Source of the DNA: Candidatus Parcubacteria bacterium
GTDB taxonomy: Bacteria > Patescibacteriota > Minisyncoccia > JAHIHE01 > JAGLIN01
Assembly (NCBI GenBank): GCA_023140775.1
Contig: JAGLLA010000011.1
Location: 1 to 44,180 of the forward strand
Direction of reading: 5' to 3'
Length of the DNA stretch: 44,180 nt
How positions within the stretch are numbered: position 1 is the first letter of the stretch; each line of letters opens with the position of its first letter. Below, piece by piece: positions 1 to 22,239 of this stretch. The translations under genes and the position numbers were made by a program. The notes below the pieces were generated by a model. That model searched no databases. It had not been told where the DNA came from and was given only the letters and a program-made list of their open reading frames with translations.

Positions 1-47
1 CAATATGAGGTGGACTAGCACAAAAATTGGTTATATTAATAAAAGTA

Positions 48-74
48 TGCTATAATTTTAATAAATGTTATAAT
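48..74 (+). promoter_or_regulatory. Two tandem extended -10 elements (TGnTATAAT) upstream of the surface locus
   Basis: TGCTATAAT at 48-56 and TGTTATAAT at 66-74. Confidence 0.55.
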
Positions 75-196
75 AGTTTTTATAGTAAAAGGATTGTAAT
101 TTGAAAAATAAATAAATAAATTTGAATATAAAAAAATTATAAAAATGGACAAGGCATAAAAATATATGCCTTTCGATATTAATTTAAAATAAATAT

Positions 197-1282
197 ATGA
201 CAAAAAAATCAAAAAAAATAAGTAAGAAGTTCGTAGCTCTAGTTTGCATGTTCACACTTGTGTTTTCGTACTCCGTCGTAAATGAAACGAGAGCGGCATT
301 GGCAATTATTAGTGACACTTTGACTGATTCTAGGCTTGGAGCTACTTCAGATCATATAATCGCATTTACAGTTAAAGCTGGAAGTCTGACGGCAGGTGAT
401 ACTGTAGTTGTTGTCTTCGAGGCAGATTTTACGACTACTAGTGTTGTTTTTGCGGATATTACAATTGCTGACGATACAGATTCTTATACTGTTGATGATG
501 GCGCATGTGCTTCAAATGAATTAGGCATTACGGGAGAGGGGACGAATACTATTACTTTTACGCTTTGTAGTGGAACTACTATTGCAGATGAAGAGCCTAT
601 CACAATAACATTTTCAAATTCACATATTACTAATCCAGCATCAGCTACTTGTGGTGGAAGTGATAATAGTTATGTTTGCGCAATAACTATCACGACATCA
701 GATGAAGCTGGTACGGCAAAAGTTGCTATAGTCTCTGGAGTTTCAGTTTCTGCTACAGTAGATGAGACATTAGCTTTTACGATTGCGGGGGTTGCTAATT
801 CTGTGGCTCAGAAAACTGGTGTTACAACAACGATTGATACAAGTGGTGATGCAACAACTCTTCCATTTGGAACTCTATCTGTTTCTGCGAATACTATTGT
901 TGGTCAAAATCTAACAGTTTCGACAAATGCTACCGGTGGCTATTCAACTACTCTTGAATATACTGCAGCCTTGACATCAGGAGCTGATACAATTTCAGAT
1001 CATAGTGGAACTAATGCGACTCCAACTTCTTTTTCTGGAGTTGGAACTGAAGGTTGGGGTTATACAACAGACGCAACTCCTTTGGGAACGGGCACAACTA
1101 CTCGTTTCGGTACTAACAATGTATGGGCTGGGCTAAGTGCTACTCCTTATGAAGTGGCATACAGTGCAACACCAATTGCATCTGACTTGACTAAGATTGC
1201 CTATCAAGCAGGAATTTCAGGAACGACTGAAGCAGGGTCGTACACCACAACTCTTTTCTATATCACTACGCCGATATACTAA
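197..1282 (+). CDS. Secreted Thr/Ser/Gly-rich two-domain beta protein with WxL-like/pilin-like C-terminal domain; putative major surface subunit
   Basis: Basic N-terminus, hydrophobic core and AxA-like site; Cys pairs in N-domain; C-domain VSVSATVDETLAFTI...LPFGTL...LTVSTNATGGY ending YTTTLFYITTPIY; no TM anchor; directly upstream of a DUF916-like gene. Confidence 0.7.
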   Translation: MTKKSKKISKKFVALVCMFTLVFSYSVVNETRAALAIISDTLTDSRLGATSDHIIAFTVKAGSLTAGDTVVVVFEADFTTTSVVFADITIADDTDSYTVDDGACASNELGITGEGTNTITFTLCSGTTIADEEPITITFSNSHITNPASATCGGSDNSYVCAITITTSDEAGTAKVAIVSGVSVSATVDETLAFTIAGVANSVAQKTGVTTTIDTSGDATTLPFGTLSVSANTIVGQNLTVSTNATGGYSTTLEYTAALTSGADTISDHSGTNATPTSFSGVGTEGWGYTTDATPLGTGTTTRFGTNNVWAGLSATPYEVAYSATPIASDLTKIAYQAGISGTTEAGSYTTTLFYITTPIY

Positions 1283-1303
1283 TTTAATTTACGGATTTGA
1301 AAT

Positions 1304-2269
1304 ATGAAGATTATGAAGAAAATAGTTTATTTATTTTTAATACCAATTATAAGTCTAATCTTTGGGTCTTTAATATCTAATGTTTTTGCACAAGAAAGTG
1401 TGGGAATTTTTATTTCTCCAGTGAGATTTGAGTTGACAGCCAATCCAGGAGATGTAATTGGAAATAAGATAAAAGTTAAAAATCCGACAGATAGTACGAT
1501 TTCACTTCGAGTTACAAGCGAAGACTTTAAGGCAATTGGCGAAGAGGGACATGTTGCTATTGATATTCAGGAAAGCGAATCAGACAAAAAAGTTTATTCA
1601 CTGAAAAGCTGGATAAAAATTCAACCAAACGAGTTTATTCTAAATCCAGGAGAAGAAAGAATTATAGATTTTATAATCGAAATACCAGAAAATGCGGAGC
1701 CAGGTGGAAAGTATGGTTCAGTTATTCCAACAATAACTGGTTTAACTGGAGAAGAGTTTACAGGAGCAACGGTTTCTTCAAGTGTGGCTGCTTTAGTTTT
1801 ATTGACTATTTCTGGTGATGTGAAAGAAGATATATTAGTCGATAGTTTTGTCGCTCCTAATTTTTCTGAGTATGGTCCCGTGCCATTTGAAATTAGATTT
1901 AAGAACAATGGAACGGTACATGTTGCGCCAAGGGGATATATAACAGTTGTTGACTGGATGGGAAATAAAGTTGATGATGTAGAGTTTTCACAGTTTAATG
2001 TAATACCTGGTGCTGTGAGAAAAATTAATAAAAAACTAGATAAAAAGTGGTTATTGGGAAAATATACGGCTACGCTCGTTGGAAGTTATGGAACGTCTAA
2101 TACTCCTTTAATTCCATATGTTACCACTTTTTGGGTTTTTCCATGGAAAATCTTCTTATCTGTTTTCGTAGTACTTTTGCTATTTATTATATTTTTCTAT
2201 ATTACAAGAAAGAGATGGAAGATGGCTTTGAAAATATTGCTTAAAGGTGAACATCGTGCACAAAACTAG
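1304..2269 (+). CDS. DUF916/WxL-interacting-like protein (PapD-like Ig domains) with C-terminal membrane anchor
   Basis: Signal peptide; ISPVRFEL..PG, SWI, L.PGE...F.I.IP.NAEPGG.YG, N.G.VH..P.G motifs; C-terminal TM followed by RKRWK. Confidence 0.75.
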   Translation: MKIMKKIVYLFLIPIISLIFGSLISNVFAQESVGIFISPVRFELTANPGDVIGNKIKVKNPTDSTISLRVTSEDFKAIGEEGHVAIDIQESESDKKVYSLKSWIKIQPNEFILNPGEERIIDFIIEIPENAEPGGKYGSVIPTITGLTGEEFTGATVSSSVAALVLLTISGDVKEDILVDSFVAPNFSEYGPVPFEIRFKNNGTVHVAPRGYITVVDWMGNKVDDVEFSQFNVIPGAVRKINKKLDKKWLLGKYTATLVGSYGTSNTPLIPYVTTFWVFPWKIFLSVFVVLLLFIIFFYITRKRWKMALKILLKGEHRAQN

Positions 2270-2301
2270 TCTATATTTATAAATTCTTATATCTTCTGCT
2301 T

Positions 2302-2332
2302 AAAAAATGACATTCATGATGTCGTTTTTTTT
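2302..2332 (+). terminator. Intrinsic terminator
   Basis: AAAAAATGACAT-tcatg-ATGTCGTTTTTT hairpin with T tract. Confidence 0.65.
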
Positions 2333-2378
2333 GTTGTAATTATTTTTTAATTCAAAATTAATATGTTATAATACAAAA

Positions 2379-3698
2379 ATGAATACAAAAAGGAGATATA
2401 ATAATTTACGATATAAATTTGTCCCTGTAATATTTTTTATTGCAGTTATTTGCTCCTATTCAGTTTTTCAGACAAAGGCTATGAAAGTTTCTAATATCAG
2501 CGATACTATCTCTGACGCAAGGGTTGGAATTGCAAATGTCACTCATAATATTTCTTGGTCTGGAAGTTCTGCTAACACTTTATATTGTATTAAGGTTTTA
2601 TTTTGCACTACTTCAGGTGGTGGTTGTACTGTGCCGTCTGAGTTTAATAGTGTTTCAGCTATCAAGGAAAATCTTTCTGGATTAACTAGTTTAAATTGGG
2701 TTTTGGATAATACTTCAAACGGAATTTTGAAATTGGTAAATGTAGCAGGAGAGAGTCCTACTCCTAGTGTTGGTATGGAATTTTCAGGAATTACAAATCC
2801 GATCGTGAGTGGTAGTCTGTATTTGAGATTAGGAACTTATTCGGATGCGGGATGTCTAGCACAAGTTGATAATGGTATTACTATAATTAATATTGAAGAA
2901 CAAGGAATTAGTGTTTCGGCAACTGTTGGAGATACTACTCCACCGCCACCTAGCGGTGGGGGTGGGCAAATTACTCCATCTGGTTATGCCACAGTTGTAT
3001 TCAAAGGTAAAGCTTATCCTGGTTCTTATGTAACGATCTTAAAGGATGGAAATGTGACAGCCACTCTTAGCGCTGATCCAGGGGCTAATTTTGAGGCAAC
3101 TTTGACAGGCTTATCTGCGGGTGTTCGAAATTTTGGTTTGTGGTCAGAGGATAAGAATGGTGTAAAATCCATGACCTTAAGTTTTTCATCAGCCTTAACT
3201 GCTGGTACTGTTACAACTTTCTCTGGCTTGTTCTTGCCTCCTACTATTAATATTGAAAATAGCAGCGTAACAAAGGGAGAGATAATAAATATTTTTGGCT
3301 ATTCTTATCCTGCGAGTGAGGTTAATATTTTTTTAAATTCTGAATCAGAAATAGTTAAAAAAGTAACAGCTAAAGAAGATGGTGGTTGGCTTTTGGCATT
3401 TGACACTTCTTTGGTTGAAACTGGAGACCATAGTGCTCGTTCAAAAGCGGTATCGCCCGAAGCGGAAATTTCTCTTTTTTCGCAGGTTGTTGATTTTCGA
3501 GTTTTGAAAGAAGGGGAACAAGGAGCTTGTCAGGGGGCGGATTTAAATTTTGATAAAAAAATTGATTTAATCGATTTTTCAATTATGTTATATTTTTGGG
3601 ATCAAGCAATGCCATCTAATATATGTGCCGATATAAATTCTGGTGGAACAGTTAATTTGGTTGATTTTAGTATTATGATGTATTATTGGACCGATTAG
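2379..3698 (+). CDS. Secreted multi-Ig-like protein with C-terminal dockerin domain
   Basis: Signal peptide; N-domain resembles 197..1282; PPPPSGGGG linker; duplicated Ca-binding motif ADLNFDKKIDLIDFSIM / ADINSGGTVNLVDFSIM. Confidence 0.8.
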   Translation: MNTKRRYNNLRYKFVPVIFFIAVICSYSVFQTKAMKVSNISDTISDARVGIANVTHNISWSGSSANTLYCIKVLFCTTSGGGCTVPSEFNSVSAIKENLSGLTSLNWVLDNTSNGILKLVNVAGESPTPSVGMEFSGITNPIVSGSLYLRLGTYSDAGCLAQVDNGITIINIEEQGISVSATVGDTTPPPPSGGGGQITPSGYATVVFKGKAYPGSYVTILKDGNVTATLSADPGANFEATLTGLSAGVRNFGLWSEDKNGVKSMTLSFSSALTAGTVTTFSGLFLPPTINIENSSVTKGEIINIFGYSYPASEVNIFLNSESEIVKKVTAKEDGGWLLAFDTSLVETGDHSARSKAVSPEAEISLFSQVVDFRVLKEGEQGACQGADLNFDKKIDLIDFSIMLYFWDQAMPSNICADINSGGTVNLVDFSIMMYYWTD

Positions 3699-3830
3699 AT
3701 TTTCAAATAAATATTAGACAACCAAAGAAAATTTTGTGGAATTTAATAAAATTTGGTTATTATGAAAAAATCAATAAATATTGTATAATATTAATAAAAG
3801 TATAGGATAATATAAAATTAAATATAAGAA

Positions 3831-4973
3831 ATGCAAAAAATTATCGTTACAATTTTTTCTTGTCTTTTTTTGGTAGTTCCTTTCGTGGTTAAGTCTGCTG
3901 ATATCTTTTTAATTCCGCAAGCATTTGAATATTACAAAGACAATACATTTATTAAGGAGGTTTATCTTGATACAGAAGATGAAAATATTAATGTTGTAGA
4001 GTCGAAAATAGTTTTTAATTTTGATGTTTTGGAGGCTGTTGATGTGATGACGGGTAATTCAATAATTAAACTTTGGGTAGAAGAACCAAGAATATCAAAC
4101 AAGGAAGGAAAAATTAAATTTTCAGGAGGAATACCTAATGGATACAAAGGAAATGGATTGTTGTTTAAAATATTATTTAAGGCAAAAAATAGTGGAGATT
4201 GTGGATTTAATTTTATTAGTGCTAGTATATATTTAAATGATGGCAAGGCGACGAAGGAAAATGTAGATATTATAGAAGATAACTGCAATATTGTAGAAAA
4301 GTTAGAAAATCTTATTGAAGTTTCATCAACAAGTCATCCTAATGAAAATAAATGGTATGGCGATAGTAATTTAAGTTTGCAGTGGGATTTGATTGAAAAC
4401 ATTGATTATAGTTATCTTTTAAGCAAAGATTCATTATCTATCCCTGATATGATAGCTAATAGGCCAGAAGGTGATTTGATTTGGATGGATTCAATGTCAT
4501 ATAAAGGTTTAGATGATGGAATTTACTATTTTCATTTAAGACAAAAAAAGATTGATAAGAAATGGTCAGAAAAAACAACATACAGAGCAATGATTGATGC
4601 GAGAAAACCAGAAAAGCTATTTGCTCAAGTGGAGGATATTGAAGGAAAAAAATATTTAGTTTTCAATGCGGAAGACAAAACTTCAGGAATTGAAAAATAC
4701 ATGATTTTGGAAAAACCGACAAAAAAAATAACTGATATTTTTCGAAAAATTGATTCAAAAGATCTGCTAATTGCGGTTAGTCCATATCTTTTAGAAGATC
4801 AAAAACTTCAAAGTGATATAGTTATTATGGCAATTGATAAAGCAGGTAATGAGTCAAGAATCGAAATTCTTGCTACTGAGGATGATTCTTCAATTTTACA
4901 ATTTTCAGTATTGTTATTAGCTATAATTATATTAATTATAATAATATTGATTGCGAAAAGGAAAAAAAAGTAA
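3831..4973 (+). CDS. Cohesin-domain surface protein with C-terminal TM anchor
   Basis: Signal peptide; INVVE..I.F..D.LE...LWVEEP...G.I.FSGG.PNG...LF.I.F.AK..G..LNDG pattern; C-terminal TM plus KRKKK. Confidence 0.75.
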   Translation: MQKIIVTIFSCLFLVVPFVVKSADIFLIPQAFEYYKDNTFIKEVYLDTEDENINVVESKIVFNFDVLEAVDVMTGNSIIKLWVEEPRISNKEGKIKFSGGIPNGYKGNGLLFKILFKAKNSGDCGFNFISASIYLNDGKATKENVDIIEDNCNIVEKLENLIEVSSTSHPNENKWYGDSNLSLQWDLIENIDYSYLLSKDSLSIPDMIANRPEGDLIWMDSMSYKGLDDGIYYFHLRQKKIDKKWSEKTTYRAMIDARKPEKLFAQVEDIEGKKYLVFNAEDKTSGIEKYMILEKPTKKITDIFRKIDSKDLLIAVSPYLLEDQKLQSDIVIMAIDKAGNESRIEILATEDDSSILQFSVLLLAIIILIIIILIAKRKKK

Positions 4974-5192
4974 AGAACGAATTTTAATATTTATATTATC
5001 TTTGTTGTTTTTCTGACCATTTCATGCAATCGTTCTATCGTTAATTATAATTATATTTGTAATATGCCTTGTATTCAATAGAGGAAACAAAAAAAAGAAA
5101 AAAATTTGCAATGAAATTAAAAGAAAAAGAAGAAGTAATTATAAATCAATTAAGAAACATTGAAAGAGATAATAATAATCAAAATTTATAAT

Positions 5193-6917
5193 ATGAAAAA
5201 AATTATATTCATATTTGCATTATTTTTACTTATCATAATGCCAGCAGGGAAAACTGAAGCTGCTTCTTTATATATATCTCCAGTAAATGGAGAATATTTA
5301 GTAGATTCATCTTTTTCGGTGTCAGTTAGTGTAAATAGTTTAGGAACTTCAATTAACGCTATTGAAGCTGTTATAAATTATCCAGCTGATATTCTTGAAG
5401 TTAAAAGCATTTCAAAAAGTAATTCGATTTTGAAATTATGGATAAAGGAGCCAACATTTTCAAATGGGGTTATTAGTTTTAGTGGAGGAACTCCTGCTCC
5501 AGATTTTATTGGTTCGGGGAATAATATCGTTGTAAATTTTCTAGCGAAAAAAGAAGGAAAAGCAAGTTTGTTAATTTCTGAAGGAATGGTTTTAGCGGCT
5601 GACGGAAGAGGAACGAATGTGCTAACTTCAAAAAATGGTGCAATTTTTAATATTATTACAAAAATTAAGTCACCGATGCCACCTGATGACAGAAAAAAAA
5701 TAGTTATTCCAGATGCGAAAAAGATTATTAATAAAAAACCTGAAAAAATATTAATATCATCCAAAACACATCCAGACCAAAATCAGTGGTATAATAATCC
5801 AAATACCATAATTTCTTGGAAAATGCCAACGGATATTATTTTGCAAAATTTAAATTTTGACATGGAACAAAAATTATCGTCAGATACAATTACCAAGAAT
5901 TTATTTGATAATAATGAATATAATGATATTAGTGATGGCAAATGGTATTTTAATATCAAAGTAAAAAATAATTATGGATGGAGTCCAATTGCAAGCTATA
6001 AAATTAAAATTGATATCAAGAGTCCTTATGATTTTGAAATAAGAATTGAAAATAATAATGATGCAACTAATCCTAGTCCAGAATTATATTTTAAGGCAGA
6101 AGATGACTTATCTGGTATTGGTTATTATGAAATGATAATTGATGATATTAACCATTTCTCAATAGTTCCTTCGGAAGTTAATCCTTTTATAATGCCAGTG
6201 CAAAGTCCTGGATTGCATAGTGTAATCGTAGTTGCAGTTGATAAAGCAGGTAATCGAACAGAAAGTAAAACATCGATAAATATTAAATCAATTGAAATTC
6301 CTGAAATTACTATATACCCTCAGATATATAAAGCAGGAGATGAGATGATGTATCTTGAAGGAAAATCAATGCCTGAATCAATTTTAGTTTTGAATTTCAC
6401 TAAAGATGGAAAGATAATAAGAAATTGGGAGACAATCAGTGATAATGAAGGAAATTGGAAATATTTTACTGAAGAATTATTTAAAGAGGGGACTTATATA
6501 ATTTCAGCTCAAACAAAAGATGCAAGAGGGGCAATAAGCTATCCTTCTGAGGGGGAAGAGATTAAAATATTATTAAGTGGTTTTGCTATTGGTTCGTACG
6601 TAGTTAGCTATATCCCGTTTGTACGGATATTATTGCTGCTATTATTGATTATATCGATAGTGATTTTTGTATTTATAAATAGATCAAAAAAAGAAAAGAG
6701 AGCGATTATAAGAGAAATTTTTGAAGCAAGGGTAAGTTTGAAAAAAAACTTTAGAATATTAAAAAGCAAGATTGAAAAGAGGATTAAAATCATTGATGCT
6801 AAACCAGGATTTAATAGCAAAGAGAAAAAGATAAGAGATGATATATTTAGTGTTTTGGAAAAATCAGAGAAAAATATTGGGAAAGAAATTAAGAATATTG
6901 AAGATGAAGTAAAATAG
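5193..6917 (+). CDS. Cohesin-domain surface protein with Ig-like domains, TM anchor and cytoplasmic coiled tail (start revised to ATG 5193)
   Basis: MKKIIFIF signal peptide; INAIEA.I.YP.D.LEV..LWIKEP..FSGG..AADG.GT; shares S.THP...WY, DG.YF, AED..SGI, DKAGN with 3831..4973. Confidence 0.78.
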   Translation: MKKIIFIFALFLLIIMPAGKTEAASLYISPVNGEYLVDSSFSVSVSVNSLGTSINAIEAVINYPADILEVKSISKSNSILKLWIKEPTFSNGVISFSGGTPAPDFIGSGNNIVVNFLAKKEGKASLLISEGMVLAADGRGTNVLTSKNGAIFNIITKIKSPMPPDDRKKIVIPDAKKIINKKPEKILISSKTHPDQNQWYNNPNTIISWKMPTDIILQNLNFDMEQKLSSDTITKNLFDNNEYNDISDGKWYFNIKVKNNYGWSPIASYKIKIDIKSPYDFEIRIENNNDATNPSPELYFKAEDDLSGIGYYEMIIDDINHFSIVPSEVNPFIMPVQSPGLHSVIVVAVDKAGNRTESKTSINIKSIEIPEITIYPQIYKAGDEMMYLEGKSMPESILVLNFTKDGKIIRNWETISDNEGNWKYFTEELFKEGTYIISAQTKDARGAISYPSEGEEIKILLSGFAIGSYVVSYIPFVRILLLLLLIISIVIFVFINRSKKEKRAIIREIFEARVSLKKNFRILKSKIEKRIKIIDAKPGFNSKEKKIRDDIFSVLEKSEKNIGKEIKNIEDEVK

Positions 6918-18324: not shown

Positions 18325-21300
18325 GTGATAGGATGCTATGTGTTTATTAATGAAAAATATATAAACATGAAAAAGACGGTTTGTGACATTAAAGGTCAAA
18401 AGAAAAAAGAAGCAAAAAATGAATCTTTTTTCATTTTTAGTCCAAAATTTAACAAAACACTAAGTTCAAGACTGAGTAGTTTTTTATATTTCAATAAATC
18501 ATTTTCTTCTCAACATTTTGATTGCTGTTACTATAAAAAACAAAAGAATTCAAAGACTGTTCAGTATAATATTTCTGGAATGAAGAATAACAGAGTTCCA
18601 ACCATATCCACGCAGAGCTTTATACTAAAATCTCTTACTAGATCCATCTTAAATCTCAAATTAACTATAACGAAGCTTGAAGCTCACAAAAAAGCCACTG
18701 CTACTCTTCTTGCTTTTATTCTTATTTTTCAAACCATAAGCGGTGTTTTTTTTCCTCTTGATATCATAAATAAATTTGGGAACATAGCTGTTCATAAGGC
18801 AGATGCAGCATGGTATTCTGTTGGAGGAACATGGAGTTATCGAAAAGAAATTACAATTGACAGCACTAAAGTCTTGAACACTGATCAATTAAATTTTCCC
18901 ATTCTCATCTCTCACTCTGATTCCGCTCTTAAGCACACTTCTAATGGCGGGAAAGTGACAGACCTTGAAGGAGATGATATTATCTTTATCTCTTCTGATG
19001 GTAACACAAAACTGGATCATGAAATTGAAAAATATGACAACTCTACAGGAGAGATTGTTTCTTGGGTGAAAATTCCAACTCTTTCATCTTCAGCTGATAC
19101 AACGATCTATATTTACTATGCCAACTCAGCCATCACCACTTCTCAAGAAAACATCTCTAGTGTCTGGGATGATGGAGGAGCTGATAATTTCAAAATGGTT
19201 CAACATCTCAATGAAGACCCATCGGGCTCTGCCCCACAATCAACAGACTCGACTCAATATAATAATGATGGAACGTCAGGAGGAACGATGTTGACAGAAG
19301 ATCAAATTGCAGGACAAATTGACGGAAGTTTAGATTTTGATGGAAGTGATGATTATGTTGAATCAGATGATAGTGCTAGCTTAGATATTTCAGATGCTTT
19401 AACTATTAGCGCATGGATCAATTCAGATTCAATGACAAATGCTTATGACGATAGGCAAACCATTGCTACTAAAAGGCAATCTTATTATTTTGAATTAGAT
19501 GCTGGTGTGCCAATGATCTATTTATATGGTGTTGGAGGATGGTATTTAGCTACTTCGACATTATTGGCTAATAATTGGTATTATGTAACAGCAACTTACA
19601 GCGGTTCTCAAGTTGTTTTTTATGTCAATGGAATAAATGCTGGTAGCGATAATGTAAGTGGGACAATTGATCAAACTACTTATCCTTTGAGAATTGGATG
19701 GCTTGATAACGCTGTTGTTCCCAATAATAGATATTTTGATGGTCAAATCGATGAAGTCCGTATTTCTAACATCGCCCGTTCAGTAGACTGGATCACGACT
19801 GAATATAACAATCAATCACAACCAACAGAGTTTTATTCTCTTGGCATTGAAGAAAGTCAATCGCCAGTAGATCTTTCCGCCTGGTCATATAGAAAAGCAA
19901 TCACGATAGATAATACCAAAATTTCAGGTTCTACCAATTTAATCAACTTTCCATTTCTCATTGATCTTCCTACAGATGTAAATCTTCAAGCAAGCGCTCA
20001 AGTAGATGCAGATGACATTCTGTTTACCACAAGTGTCACAAATTGGTCATCTGCCACTCAAAATGACAAATTGGCTCATGAAATTGAAAGCTATATTTCT
20101 GCTACTGGAGAACTTCAAGTCTGGGTTAAACTCCCAGTTCTTGATTATAACGATGATACTATTATCTATATGTATTATGGCAACGCCAGTATCACTTCCC
20201 AACAAAACTCAACTGCAGTCTGGGGTTCAAATCAAAAAATGATTCAACATCTCAGCGCGGACCCATCGGGCTCTGCCCCACAGTCAACAGACTCAACTCA
20301 ATATAATAATAATGGAACGTCAGGAGGAACGATGCTGACAGAAGATCAAATCGCGGGACAAATTGACGGAAGTTTAGATTTTGATGGAGTGGATGATTAT
20401 GTTGATTTATCAGACTACGGGAGTCGATCAGGATTTAACACTTCCACTGGTGCAATTGAGATGTGGTTTAATCCCACAGGAGATGGTTATTTTAGTCAGC
20501 TGCTAAATTTTAGAAAAACCAGTATTCGGGACTTTATTATTGTTAGAGAAATAAATGAATCATATATTAGATTTTTCGGCGAAATTGATGATGTTGTTCA
20601 ATTTGATCTATCGACACCAGCTGGTTCAATTTCGGCAGGTAATTGGAGTCATTTTGTCTTTCAACAAACAGGCTCAGGAATTGAAGTTTATATTAACGGG
20701 GAAAGACAAACATTAATTGGTTCGGGAGAAAGCGCCACAATGTGGCTGGCAGATGTTTTTCCCGCATCACAAGATTTTACAATTGGTCATCATGGTTCTT
20801 GGCAGGATGGGGTTGGTACAGCATATTTTAATGGCCAGATCGACGAAGTTCGCATTTCAAACACGATTCGTGGCACGGATTGGATTTTAACAGAGTATAA
20901 TAATCAAAGCTTAGCTTCGTCATTTTCTACTCTTTCGATAGAACAGGTTTATGAAATCGCTATCACTGGAAGCGCAGTTCAAACAGCAGGACTAAGTCAA
21001 ACTATTACTATTACCGCTAAAGACGCAGAATCTAGCGTTATTGCCAATTTCACAGGAGATAAGTCAGTCATTTTTTCTGGTGCCAATGATTCACCAAATT
21101 CTACCGCACCAACTTGTACCGATAAAGATGCAGTGGATATTGATTTTGGATCTGCAACAATTTTGACTTTCACTAATGGAGTTGCTACATGCGATTTGAA
21201 ATTATACAAAGATGAAATTGCCACCATTACTACGAATATTAATTATGTGACGGACACTAATTTGGACATCACAGTTTCTCCAGCAGCTCTTGAGAACTTT

Positions 21301-22239
21301 TTTATTGATGTTCCAGAAAACGCTAATTATGGAGTTGCGTTTCCGATAACCATAACAGCAAGAGACATCTACCAAAATACAACTACAAATGTTTCAGGAA
21401 ACATTACTTTTAGTGTTGATCAAAATGGAACAATTATACCATCTACAGTCGCCAATACTAATTTCACTGATGATGGAACTCATACAGATAATTTCACAAT
21501 CACCAATATTAATGGACAATCTTCTGTTACTATCATTGTTGCAAATGAAAGTTCCACGGGGACAGATAATATTTTAATTTTAGTAGCAGCTGGTGGAGTA
21601 ATCGTTAGACCGACTCCTCCAATAATTAATTCTAATTTTGGACTTCCTTCTATTCAAATAATACAAACAGATGGCAAAAAAATCTTAATTTCTAATGTTC
21701 AAAATTCTTATCAAATGGCCATCTCCACGACCTTAGATTTTCAGAATGTTTCTTGGGAGCCATATAGAAAGGAAAAAGAATTAAACTTCTCTTCAGGTAT
21801 CACAAAGCTATATGTTAAATTCAGATCAATTACTGGCGGAGAAACAAAAGTAATTGAGAAAGAAATAATCCAAAATTTTGAGTCAGAAAAACTTCTCGAT
21901 GGCGATATTATCAGAATAGAAAATGATTATAAAATATATGTTAAAAAAGGAGATTATCTCAGACATATTCCGAATCCAATAGTATTTAGTTTTTATAATC
22001 ATTTAAAGTGGAACAAAATAGTAACTATAACACAACAACAATTCAATCAATTCAAAATTTCAAATCTAGTCAGAGAATTAAACGACAACAAGGTTTATGA
22101 AACAAGAGATAGTAAAACAAAGCACTGGCTTAATGTTTTAGTAGAACAATTTGTACGTCCTAACAGGTCCTGGGATATGGTTTATATTGTCAATAATAGG
22201 GAAAGAGATTTTTATGATATTGGAGTGGATGTAAAGTAG
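18325..22239 (+). CDS. Large surface protein: 2x(DUF2341 + LamG/ConA-like), Ig-like domains, C-terminal repeat domain; true start probably downstream (e.g. ATG 18580)
   Basis: WSYRK.ITID.TK, L.HEIE, WVK.P.L, IY.YY.N twice; GSLDFDG.DDYV...FDG.IDEVRISN twice; hydrophobic N-terminal segment. Confidence 0.85.
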   Translation: MIGCYVFINEKYINMKKTVCDIKGQKKKEAKNESFFIFSPKFNKTLSSRLSSFLYFNKSFSSQHFDCCYYKKQKNSKTVQYNISGMKNNRVPTISTQSFILKSLTRSILNLKLTITKLEAHKKATATLLAFILIFQTISGVFFPLDIINKFGNIAVHKADAAWYSVGGTWSYRKEITIDSTKVLNTDQLNFPILISHSDSALKHTSNGGKVTDLEGDDIIFISSDGNTKLDHEIEKYDNSTGEIVSWVKIPTLSSSADTTIYIYYANSAITTSQENISSVWDDGGADNFKMVQHLNEDPSGSAPQSTDSTQYNNDGTSGGTMLTEDQIAGQIDGSLDFDGSDDYVESDDSASLDISDALTISAWINSDSMTNAYDDRQTIATKRQSYYFELDAGVPMIYLYGVGGWYLATSTLLANNWYYVTATYSGSQVVFYVNGINAGSDNVSGTIDQTTYPLRIGWLDNAVVPNNRYFDGQIDEVRISNIARSVDWITTEYNNQSQPTEFYSLGIEESQSPVDLSAWSYRKAITIDNTKISGSTNLINFPFLIDLPTDVNLQASAQVDADDILFTTSVTNWSSATQNDKLAHEIESYISATGELQVWVKLPVLDYNDDTIIYMYYGNASITSQQNSTAVWGSNQKMIQHLSADPSGSAPQSTDSTQYNNNGTSGGTMLTEDQIAGQIDGSLDFDGVDDYVDLSDYGSRSGFNTSTGAIEMWFNPTGDGYFSQLLNFRKTSIRDFIIVREINESYIRFFGEIDDVVQFDLSTPAGSISAGNWSHFVFQQTGSGIEVYINGERQTLIGSGESATMWLADVFPASQDFTIGHHGSWQDGVGTAYFNGQIDEVRISNTIRGTDWILTEYNNQSLASSFSTLSIEQVYEIAITGSAVQTAGLSQTITITAKDAESSVIANFTGDKSVIFSGANDSPNSTAPTCTDKDAVDIDFGSATILTFTNGVATCDLKLYKDEIATITTNINYVTDTNLDITVSPAALENFFIDVPENANYGVAFPITITARDIYQNTTTNVSGNITFSVDQNGTIIPSTVANTNFTDDGTHTDNFTITNINGQSSVTIIVANESSTGTDNILILVAAGGVIVRPTPPIINSNFGLPSIQIIQTDGKKILISNVQNSYQMAISTTLDFQNVSWEPYRKEKELNFSSGITKLYVKFRSITGGETKVIEKEIIQNFESEKLLDGDIIRIENDYKIYVKKGDYLRHIPNPIVFSFYNHLKWNKIVTITQQQFNQFKISNLVRELNDNKVYETRDSKTKHWLNVLVEQFVRPNRSWDMVYIVNNRERDFYDIGVDVK
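19192..19361 (+). repeat. Internal repeat copy 1 in the DUF2341 gene
   Basis: About 170 nt, roughly 14 mismatches versus 20236-20405 (hand count), offset 1044 nt. Confidence 0.9.
20236..20405 (+). repeat. Internal repeat copy 2 in the DUF2341 gene
   Basis: Encodes DPSGSAPQSTDSTQYNN.GTSGGTMLTEDQIAGQIDGSLDFDG as in copy 1. Confidence 0.9.

Follow-up and report, generated by a model that had tools for sequence, protein, structure and literature searches.

How does a bacterium that lacks an outer membrane assemble a surface fiber, and what fastens the completed fiber to its cell? Both questions are raised by five genes, g1 to g5, at the start of contig JAGLLA010000011.1 (C3) of Candidatus Parcubacteria bacterium; the whole stretch analyzed, 44,180 nucleotides (nt), is called the window. 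The assembly (GCA_023140775.1, here G000) comprises 638 kb in 49 contigs and is 70% complete. The organism belongs to the candidate phyla radiation (CPR), whose members account for much of the diversity of bacteria and are apparently host-attached; accounts of how they build and hold fibers began to appear in 2026. In an original prediction made from the window alone, the genes were taken to encode a fiber that combines usher-less chaperone assembly with a dockerin-cohesin tether. Our analysis points in the same direction: with a rough probability of 0.6, the locus gives rise to a donor-strand-exchange pilus of Pam type, assembled with the aid of a chaperone and without an usher, and anchored via dockerin and cohesin.

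The five open reading frames (ORFs) lie on the + strand and fill window positions 197–6917. All five products begin with a hydrophobic segment in a Kyte-Doolittle scan, in keeping with the co-oriented, exported set that had been proposed. In the same scan C-terminal membrane segments occur in g2, g4, and g5 only; g1 and g3 have none. No catalytic domain was found in g1–g5 with Pfam or NCBIfam, again as anticipated.

The Pam pilus of Candidatus Mycosynbacter amalyticus and other CPR bacteria has been described from cryo-electron microscopy (cryo-EM) filaments of PamA and PamB (Troman et al. 2026, PMC13278184). According to the main text of that preprint, in both pilins an N-domain of nine strands is followed by a linker strand and then by a C-terminal immunoglobulin (Ig)-like domain that is open, and the pilins assemble by linker-strand donation without an usher. 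PamT, which has the C-domain only, forms the tip; PamR, with an N-terminal strand, two fibronectin type III (FnIII)-like domains, and a transmembrane (TM) helix, is the anchor. The system is reported there mainly in Saccharimonadia and Microgenomatia. Since an usher-free chaperone pilus has already been described, the locus studied here would be a divergent member in a lineage that is Paceibacterota-like by depositors' titles.

The layout of g1 is that of a Pam pilin. In its AlphaFold2 (AF2) model, which has a predicted local distance difference test (pLDDT) score of 90.8, strands at residues 36–177 and 192–359 flank a coil at 178–191, and this linker is unpaired in the monomer. Residues 219–361 match NCBIfam family NF058581, CPR_Pam_pilin_C (E 9.8e-7, 29 bits; 31.5 bits in a genome search); 45 of 60 g1-family members match it at E ≤ 1e-3, and they match no other NCBIfam family. 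Our canonical Pam reference consists of four operons whose pilin C-domain scores over the curated cut-off. A profile of the g1 family (A1) aligns full-length with these canonical pilins (E 1e-15 to 1e-27), and a profile of the g2 family (A3) matches the ORF that comes next after each of them (E 9e-54, 1.6e-54, 8e-68, and 2e-71). Because both profiles match canonical Pam components, we regard g1 and g2 as the divergent pilin and chaperone of a Pam system. Their assignment as pilin and membrane chaperone in the original prediction is thus strengthened by homology to a cryo-EM-resolved pilin and its chaperone. The accompanying description of g1 as WxL-like is not supported: none of the 60 family members matches a WxL Pfam family at E ≤ 0.01, the only two matches being to Beta_helix and CarbopepD_reg_2.

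The chaperone connects this system with the WxL literature. g2 scores 27.0 bits against Pfam WxLIP_PGBD (DUF916), for which the cut-off is 27.3, and 10 of 13 members of its family match at E ≤ 0.01, in line with its earlier description as DUF916-like; DUF3324 was not seen. The g2-family profile finds Enterococcus faecium WxLIP1 in the PDB (EfmWxLIP1, 9i25_C, E 0.005), and one of the four canonical Pam chaperones matches WxLIP_PGBD (E 0.0018). The Pam chaperones PamC and PamD have a C-terminal TM helix (PMC13278184, main text), as does g2. The DUF916/WxLIP family has been shown by experiment to chaperone the Elr pilus of Enterococcus faecalis, where the DUF916 protein ElrE primes the WxL pilin ElrD and nucleates a donor-strand-exchange polymer, and an LPxTG protein terminates the fiber; the main text of this preprint limits Elr-type systems to Bacillota (Sleutel et al. 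2026, 10.64898/2026.10.17.759780). Neither preprint names the other's system in its main text. From sequence comparison, CPR Pam chaperones and Bacillota DUF916/WxLIP chaperones appear to be distant homologs; thus, in Pam and WxL/Elr pili the chaperones look related, whereas the pilins look to be without detectable relation. The chaperone homology bears on the question of a single origin of the monoderm chaperone pathway, which the Elr preprint, in its main text, reports from Bacillota only.

The DUF916 likeness of g2 is also compatible with the older csc model of WxL and DUF916 proteins. In this model no polymer forms: g1 would be a monomeric surface protein kept at the envelope by g2, and g3 would be another surface protein, displayed on g4 and g5. 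The earliest description of the family was indeed that of a surface protein that binds WxL and peptidoglycan (PMC10599100). We consider this model improbable. Homologous Pam pilins were resolved as donor-strand-exchanged filaments (PMC13278184, main text), and the DUF916 protein ElrE nucleates a polymer of this kind. The linker strand of g1 is free and conserved, and the copy of its motif in g3 is predicted to fill the groove of g1.

The AF2 model of g3 (pLDDT 83) shows a signal helix, a beta-sandwich (residues 38–173), and a short strand (178–183); then come the sequence PPPPSGGGG, which is disordered, a pair of Ig domains, and a dockerin with two helices. An acceptor C-domain is missing. The N-domain in common with g1, noted in the original prediction, is recovered by BLASTP over residues 3–58 of g1 only (E 4e-6) and by A1 over profile positions 9–198 (E 3.2e-10), and the linker strands are alike (SGVSVSATVDE in g1, QGISVSATVGD in g3). 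A motif h-x-V-S/T-x-T-V/I is present in the pilins of eight loci and directly ahead of the Pro/Gly linker of the dockerin protein in six of the eight. In locus L048 the dockerin protein carries the donor motif directly after the signal peptide, and the L066 protein differs there (SIDIFADV). By depositors' titles, the closest named relatives of g3 come from Candidatus Paceibacterota (65% identity) and Candidatus Moraniibacteriota (63%).

We predicted the complex between residues 190–361 of g1 and 35–200 of g3 from self-built alignments, in three runs and with three controls. The ipSAE score is 0.84 (0.84, 0.83, and 0.85 in the runs), as compared with 0.01 for the best control; the mark that it reached was also attained by 58 of 80 solved complexes and, among mismatched pairs, by 2 of 110. 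The runs share 84% of contacts or more, and the partner has a pLDDT of 83 or higher. In the predicted interface, the donor strand of g3 lies between two g1 strands, with residue pairs (g1/g3) 352/177–179, 349–350/181, and 346–347/183. It runs antiparallel to the last g1 strand, which is the topology of exchange, not of chaperone complementation (10.64898/2026.10.17.759780, main text). A donor strand, no acceptor domain, and predicted docking in the g1 groove all favor the role of basal adaptor that had been proposed for g3. We place g3 at the base because the fiber would grow at the membrane-held chaperone and a donor-only subunit must be added last.

The C-terminus of g3 has the duplicated Ca-loop and helix layout of a dockerin, with helices at 397–405 and 427–438 in the AF2 model. 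Dockerin_1 (PF00404) scores 17.1 bits (E 0.006) in hmmscan and 31.2 bits, over the cut-off, together with neighboring stretches in a six-frame genome search; D388, N390, D399, and D429 are invariant in 33 sequences. g4 and g5 are paralogs (27% identity over 383 columns, E 4e-29). Pfam Cohesin scores 17.9 bits in g4 (E 0.0037) and 21.9 bits in g5, with a cut-off of 24.1, and is matched by 19 of 34 members of the g4/g5 family at E ≤ 0.01 (best E 1.6e-8). In the ESM Atlas, 29 of 30 named matches of g4 fall within the Cohesin set (top score 0.94); a profile of the family (A4) yields weak cohesin matches in the PDB, with E values of 0.09 and higher. The g3 dockerin of the original prediction is recovered, and the cohesin identity that it proposed for the two anchored paralogs has support at the family level, each single score being under the threshold.

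Genome-wide searches covered G000 and four genomes that are 96–100% complete (G006, G017, G039, and G267). Each of the five has a single PF00404 match over the cut-off, always the g3-type gene; G017 holds one further match elsewhere, under the cut-off. All A4 matches lie directly beside the g3-type gene in four of the five genomes; the fifth, G267, has one weak extra match, to a middle domain, on another contig. Because of this adjacency and the pattern of one dockerin with neighboring cohesins, the g3 dockerin appears, as judged from sequence, to be tethered by the cohesins of g4 and g5. The presence of cohesin and dockerin modules could also signify a cellulosome-like display of enzymes on cohesin scaffolds. 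We rejected this reading as extremely unlikely: a single over-cut-off dockerin in each genome searched leaves no group of enzymes with dockerins that could be displayed, and no catalytic domain was found in the five proteins. The usher family PF00577 was found in none of the five genomes and was detected in an Escherichia coli control genome, consistent with the expectation that CPR bacteria have no usher. Sortase (PF04203) was found in one genome (G039) and neither in G000, at its 70% completeness, nor in G006, G017, and G267.

The arrangement of the locus recurs. Among 16 loci around g3 relatives, from 61 related genomes, 15 contain cohesin ORFs, the remaining one being truncated at the end of its contig, and 12 contain a chaperone-family ORF; the order pilin-chaperone-g3-cohesins is kept in 7 of the 16, in one of which the pilin is cut by the contig start. 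A second set comprised 80 loci with a g3 relative from species-representative genomes, at least five of them on the same contigs as in the first set. At least one cohesin ORF is present in 74 of these loci and at least two in 66, and a chaperone ORF in 62. The synteny at which the original prediction aimed is found in other genomes too. A full A1-type pilin occurs in 14 of the 80, a C-domain-only protein in 20, and a dockerin protein with the pilin N-domain in 12.

In the two closest relatives, the region 5′ of the pilin holds a second chaperone as well as a protein that ends in an acceptor C-domain (2066 amino acids (aa) in L035; the ORF is cut by the contig end in L036). Judged by this architecture, the C-domain-ending proteins are candidate tip adhesins. 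At E ≤ 1e-3, no Pfam family matched the candidate tip proteins of L035, L066 (1094 aa), and L048 (568 aa). In G000 the tip subunit would lie outside the assembly, the matching position being beyond the contig start.

How canonical Pam operons end suggests what the dockerin protein may replace. In G267 the last genes of the over-cut-off Pam operon encode an Ig-Ig-dockerin protein and two cohesins, whereas the operons of G274, G360, and G225 end in a PamR-like protein composed of a strand, a Pro-rich stretch, Big_6, PKD, and a TM segment. On account of these alternative endings, g3 plus cohesin looks like a split version of PamR. A profile of the g3 family (A2) weakly matches the PamR-like protein of G274 at positions 174–245 (whole-protein E 2.5e-5) and does not match those of G360 and G225.

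The survey also bears on an alternative that keeps the Pam-type pilus and drops its anchor. g3 could be a length-limiting cap that releases the fiber, or the cohesins could form a separate scaffold that displays g3-type adhesins or links neighboring cells. Among 401 genomes of a phylum sample, the cohesin family occurs in 91 that lack a Pam C-domain match at E ≤ 1e-5; many g3 relatives carry other N-terminal modules or none, the pilin N-domain being confined to the 12 loci mentioned above; Pam pili detach easily, according to the preprint's Discussion (PMC13278184); and several cohesin paralogs face a single dockerin. Set against this, the g3-type gene is the sole over-cut-off dockerin of all five genomes and always lies between chaperone and cohesins, and most dockerin loci (the 62 of 80) also have a chaperone-family ORF. 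Where an A1-type pilin is missing, a chaperone of divergent sequence and pilin-like proteins whose N-terminal strand matches can lie directly 5′, as in L040, and in a fiber that grows at its base a donor-only subunit is cell-proximal by construction. We take this alternative seriously and still judge it unlikely.

Several observations weigh against the pilus with a dockerin-cohesin anchor. The 29–31.5 bits of g1 on CPR_Pam_pilin_C are under the 55-bit cut-off. In single-sequence hmmscan, the scores of the g3 dockerin and of the g4 and g5 cohesins are all under the Pfam gathering scores, and in the g3 dockerin G takes the place of the family-consensus D at position 5 of the second Ca loop. The g1-g3 score expresses model confidence, hence likeness rather than binding, and comes from self-built alignments. 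Neither an acceptor-only tip subunit nor a second chaperone was found in G000, which is 70% complete and whose contig starts 196 nt 5′ of g1. The presence of two to five cohesin paralogs per locus beside a single dockerin protein is not accounted for by this reading. No RNA runs containing the locus are listed; the four listed runs are DNA, labeled cold seep metagenome, from one study. Pam C-domain and cohesin family are not associated across the 401 genomes (both 35, Pam only 63, cohesin only 91, neither 212; odds ratio 1.29, p 0.32, with related genomes not being independent). The Pam C-domain itself occurs in 98 of these genomes at E ≤ 1e-5, in 33 over the cut-off; the lack of association may stem in part from other pilin types. 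Finally, a global comparison gave a weak signal that dockerin proteins copy the donor strand found at their own locus: over 82 loci the mean score is 20.3 for self and 19.7 for non-self pairs, 78 of 2000 permutations reach the observed mean, and the own locus ranks top in 2 of 82. In this comparison the donor segment was the 12 residues before the first Pro/Gly-rich window, a rule that fails where a Cys-rich module intervenes. The donor-strand pairs of G000, L040, L075, L076, L083, and L093 are illustrative only.

A pilus anchored by dockerin and cohesin would work as follows. All five proteins would be exported by Sec. On export, g1 would be held by the chaperone g2, which would fill the open groove in the g1 C-domain. 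Polymerization would proceed as the linker strand of an incoming subunit (VSVSATV) displaces the chaperone from the groove of the previous one; since that strand replaces the chaperone, the fiber would grow at its base. Incorporation of g3, with a donor strand and no acceptor domain, would end growth and free the fiber from the chaperone. The dockerin, carried on the Pro/Gly linker and two Ig domains, would then bind the N-terminal cohesin of membrane-fixed g4 or g5. Thus, g3 and g4/g5 would do as two polypeptides the job of single-chain PamR, or of the LPxTG protein ElrB and sortase in enterococci. The Pam homology of g1 and g2, the domain architecture, the predicted insertion of the g3 strand into g1, the synteny, and the single over-cut-off dockerin per genome were computed here; polymerization of g1, chaperoning by g2, dockerin-cohesin binding, the order of events, and a role in contact with a host or substrate are inferred.

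More tentatively, a portable three-part module made of a DUF916-type chaperone, a donor-only dockerin terminator, and two to five membrane cohesins could finish and fasten fibers in many Paceibacterota-like CPR bacteria. It would provide a third anchoring route beside PamR and sortase/LPxTG and a first defined cellular role for non-cellulosomal pairs, and Pam and WxL/Elr pili would have a common origin. Our literature searches listed no paper on dockerin and cohesin in CPR bacteria and, for dockerin in donor-strand pili, a single review from 2013; the main texts of the two preprints contain neither word; that of the Pam preprint mentions neither WxL nor DUF916 either. The usher-less chaperone pilus of the original prediction is already covered by the two 2026 preprints (PMC13278184; 10.64898/2026.10.17.759780); the proposed dockerin-cohesin tether, composed of a dockerin-bearing terminator and cohesin anchors, is the new part and, as far as we searched, is not in print. 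If the tether is real, a plug and socket that is non-covalent and probably depends on Ca could fasten donor-strand-exchange pili, which in principle allows release or exchange, and widespread non-cellulosomal cohesin and dockerin modules would gain a concrete function. Dockerin, cohesin, and the pilin-chaperone pair would then be small, soluble parts, open to expression and assay with no need to culture the organism.

Comparison with known systems brings out what is shared and what is not. With Pam the locus has in common a two-domain pilin with a linker strand, a chaperone with a C-terminal helix, assembly without an usher, the CPR setting, and profile homology of pilin and chaperone; it differs in the low C-domain score, in lineage, and in having a donor-only dockerin subunit and separate TM cohesins in place of a single-chain TM anchor of PamR type. 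The Elr/WxL pilus is alike in its DUF916-type membrane chaperone, its linear donor-strand-exchange fiber without an outer membrane, its donor-only base terminator, and its modular tip adhesins, as far as the main text of the preprint describes them (10.64898/2026.10.17.759780). It differs in that the g1 family has no WxL Pfam match and the g1 donor strand is internal, and in that Elr is anchored via LPxTG and sortase, whereas the end of g3 is a dockerin and a sortase was found in just one of the five genomes. Chaperone-usher pili (Pap, Fim) also use chaperone complementation followed by exchange, an antiparallel donor strand, an acceptor-only tip, and a donor-only terminator; here, in contrast, an outer membrane is missing and no usher was found in the five genomes, a membrane anchor holds the chaperone, and the donor strand is internal to a two-domain pilin. 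Cellulosomal pairs share the duplicated Ca-loop/helix dockerin, the cohesin beta-sandwiches, and the placement of cohesins on cell-bound anchoring proteins. The anchoring scaffoldins of cellulosomes use S-layer homology (SLH) domains or sortase motifs. The pairs of the locus differ in having no enzymes, one dockerin protein per genome, a C-terminal TM anchor, and a pilus subunit as client.

A further likeness concerns environmental fibrils. Among solved structures, TLP-1b matches the g1 C-domain best (9ikk_A; Z 8.6, root-mean-square deviation 2.9 Å over 142 residues). TLP-1a and TLP-1b are environmental donor-strand-exchange fibrils found by CryoSeek, TLP-1b in pond water; they differ in taking an N-terminal donor strand from protomer n+4 and in forming an 8-nm tube (PMC11494351). 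g1 and A1 have no sequence match with TLP-1, and a Z of 8.6 can reflect a common fold only. By analogy, environmental fibrils like TLP-1 may come from CPR-like bacteria. Searches of the PDB with the g1 sequence and A1 returned nothing relevant, and Foldseek with the g1 model listed no Pam structure among its matches. MSCRAMM adhesins (SdrE, ClfB, FnBPA; Foldseek against the PDB, E ~4e-7) were discarded as a generic two-domain likeness, the template modeling score being just 0.2–0.26. For the g1 N-domain, VIA-align found YweA (Z 11.1), Ig domains of Gram-positive pilins (Z 9–10), and cohesins (Z 7.5–8), which is likeness of fold alone.

In the two closest relatives the pilin is 33–36% identical, as compared with 50–65% for g2–g5; on these identities, the fiber protein seems to evolve or to be exchanged faster than the assembly and anchor parts. 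A related protein, P0010, is 67% identical to g1 over residues 1–200 (N-domain and linker), and the C-domains do not align; going by this alignment, the g1 pilin is a mosaic. There are two cohesin paralogs in G000 and three in its closest relatives.

Other loci encode other pilin-like proteins. In L040 and L046, a divergent chaperone (A3, E ~1e-7) and pilin-like proteins lie 5′ of the dockerin gene. They represent a second, non-Pam type (L040:10333–14019 and L046:5389–9458, both on the − strand), with proteins of 308, 466, and 616 aa and the chaperone between them. The strand that directly follows their signal peptide (ADSSSTSVTIT; ADIATTSVTVI) is similar to the N-terminus seen in the dockerin protein of their own locus; in L040 the two read ADSSSTSVTIT and ADSSATSVTII. 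A sequence search of the PDB gave no match for the 308-aa protein of L040. ORFs of ~205–215 aa in which a donor-like motif (e.g. ISVSATV at residue 48) closely follows the signal peptide occur at L075:5049–5684, L076:5058–5693, L070:1546–2184, L085:1987–2601, and L091:1849–2493; those of L085 and L091 match, in addition, the part of A1 that covers the Pam C-domain. From their composition, these ORFs may be minimal one-domain pilins without an N-domain. The g2-family tail motif K-x-L-x-KGEH (window 2216–2266; A3 consensus KILxKGEH) also ends a PamR-like anchor, KLSKGEHPFD (L064:5659–6552), so that the KGEH tail may be a common cytoplasmic sorting or docking signal.

Table 1. Features of the pilus locus (window positions in nt; residues in protein numbering; TM segments from the Kyte-Doolittle scan).
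Feature	Window position	Residues	Strand	Details
Tandem extended −10 boxes, type TGNTATAAT	48–74		+	TGCTATAAT at 48–56 and TGTTATAAT at 66–74, 5′ of g1; consensus matches only
g1	197–1282	361 aa	+	Pam-type pilin
g1 signal peptide		1–33	+
g1 N-domain		34–177	+	beta-sandwich, AF2 model
g1 linker	716–766	174–190	+	donor-strand motif GVSVSATVDE; strand about 179–190, VSVSATV at 182–188
g1 C-terminal domain	767–1279	191–361	+	acceptor, Ig-like, AF2 model
g2	1304–2269	321 aa	+	putative membrane-anchored chaperone, PamC/PamD-like, DUF916/WxLIP-like
g2 parts			+	two beta domains; TM helix 273–305; basic tail ending KILLKGEHRAQN
Hairpin and U-run between g2 and g3	2302–2333		+	candidate intrinsic terminator or attenuator
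Third extended −10 box, type TGNTATAAT	2364–2372		+	TGTTATAAT; ends 6 nt 5′ of the g3 ATG
g3	2379–3698	439 aa	+	putative donor-only base subunit with dockerin
g3 domains				signal peptide; pilin-type N-domain 35–173; Pro/Gly linker 187–200; Ig 203–285; Ig 296–376
g3 donor strand (GISVSATVGD)	2898–2936	174–186	+	predicted to insert between g1 strands 220–227 and 344–356
g3 dockerin	3531–3692	385–438	+	repeats DLNFDKKIDLIDF and DINSGGTVNLVDF, each followed by a helix
g4	3831–4973	380 aa	+	putative membrane anchor 1, cohesin family
g4 domains				signal peptide; cohesin about 22–155; middle Ig-like domains; TM within 351–380; KRKKK tail
g5	5160–6917	585 aa	+	putative membrane anchor 2; probable start is the ATG at 5193
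g5 domains				cohesin 48–148; middle Ig-like domains including Big_13; TM within 475–511; charged cytoplasmic tail of ~74 aa

The regulatory signals named in the original prediction were recovered. Both tandem −10 boxes are in place 5′ of g1, and boxes of this type are enriched in the window (12 as compared with 4.27 ± 2.22 expected; 12 was reached in 0 of 100 shuffles). The third box ends so close to the start codon that the g3 transcript may be leaderless, as its position suggests. The predicted terminator between g2 and g3 folds with −12.7 kcal/mol (z −5.27; 0 of 200 shuffles folded equally well) and is absent from the list of a consensus terminator scan. The ATG preferred for g5 is where its alignment with g4 starts.

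The first 22–26 bases of the contig (window 1–26) recur at the starts of contigs C10 and C34. This repeat is probably an assembly-graph branch, at which a tip adhesin and a second chaperone, located 5′ of the pilin in relatives, may have been lost. One of the four cold seep metagenome DNA runs is a possible source of the assembly. The genes 3′ of the locus are housekeeping genes, including glycogen-related GT4/GT5, GH57, a debranching enzyme, and pyruvate:ferredoxin oxidoreductase (PFOR). Outside the locus, positions 18325–22239 encode another large candidate surface protein, of 1304 aa, with Laminin_G_3 and DUF2341.

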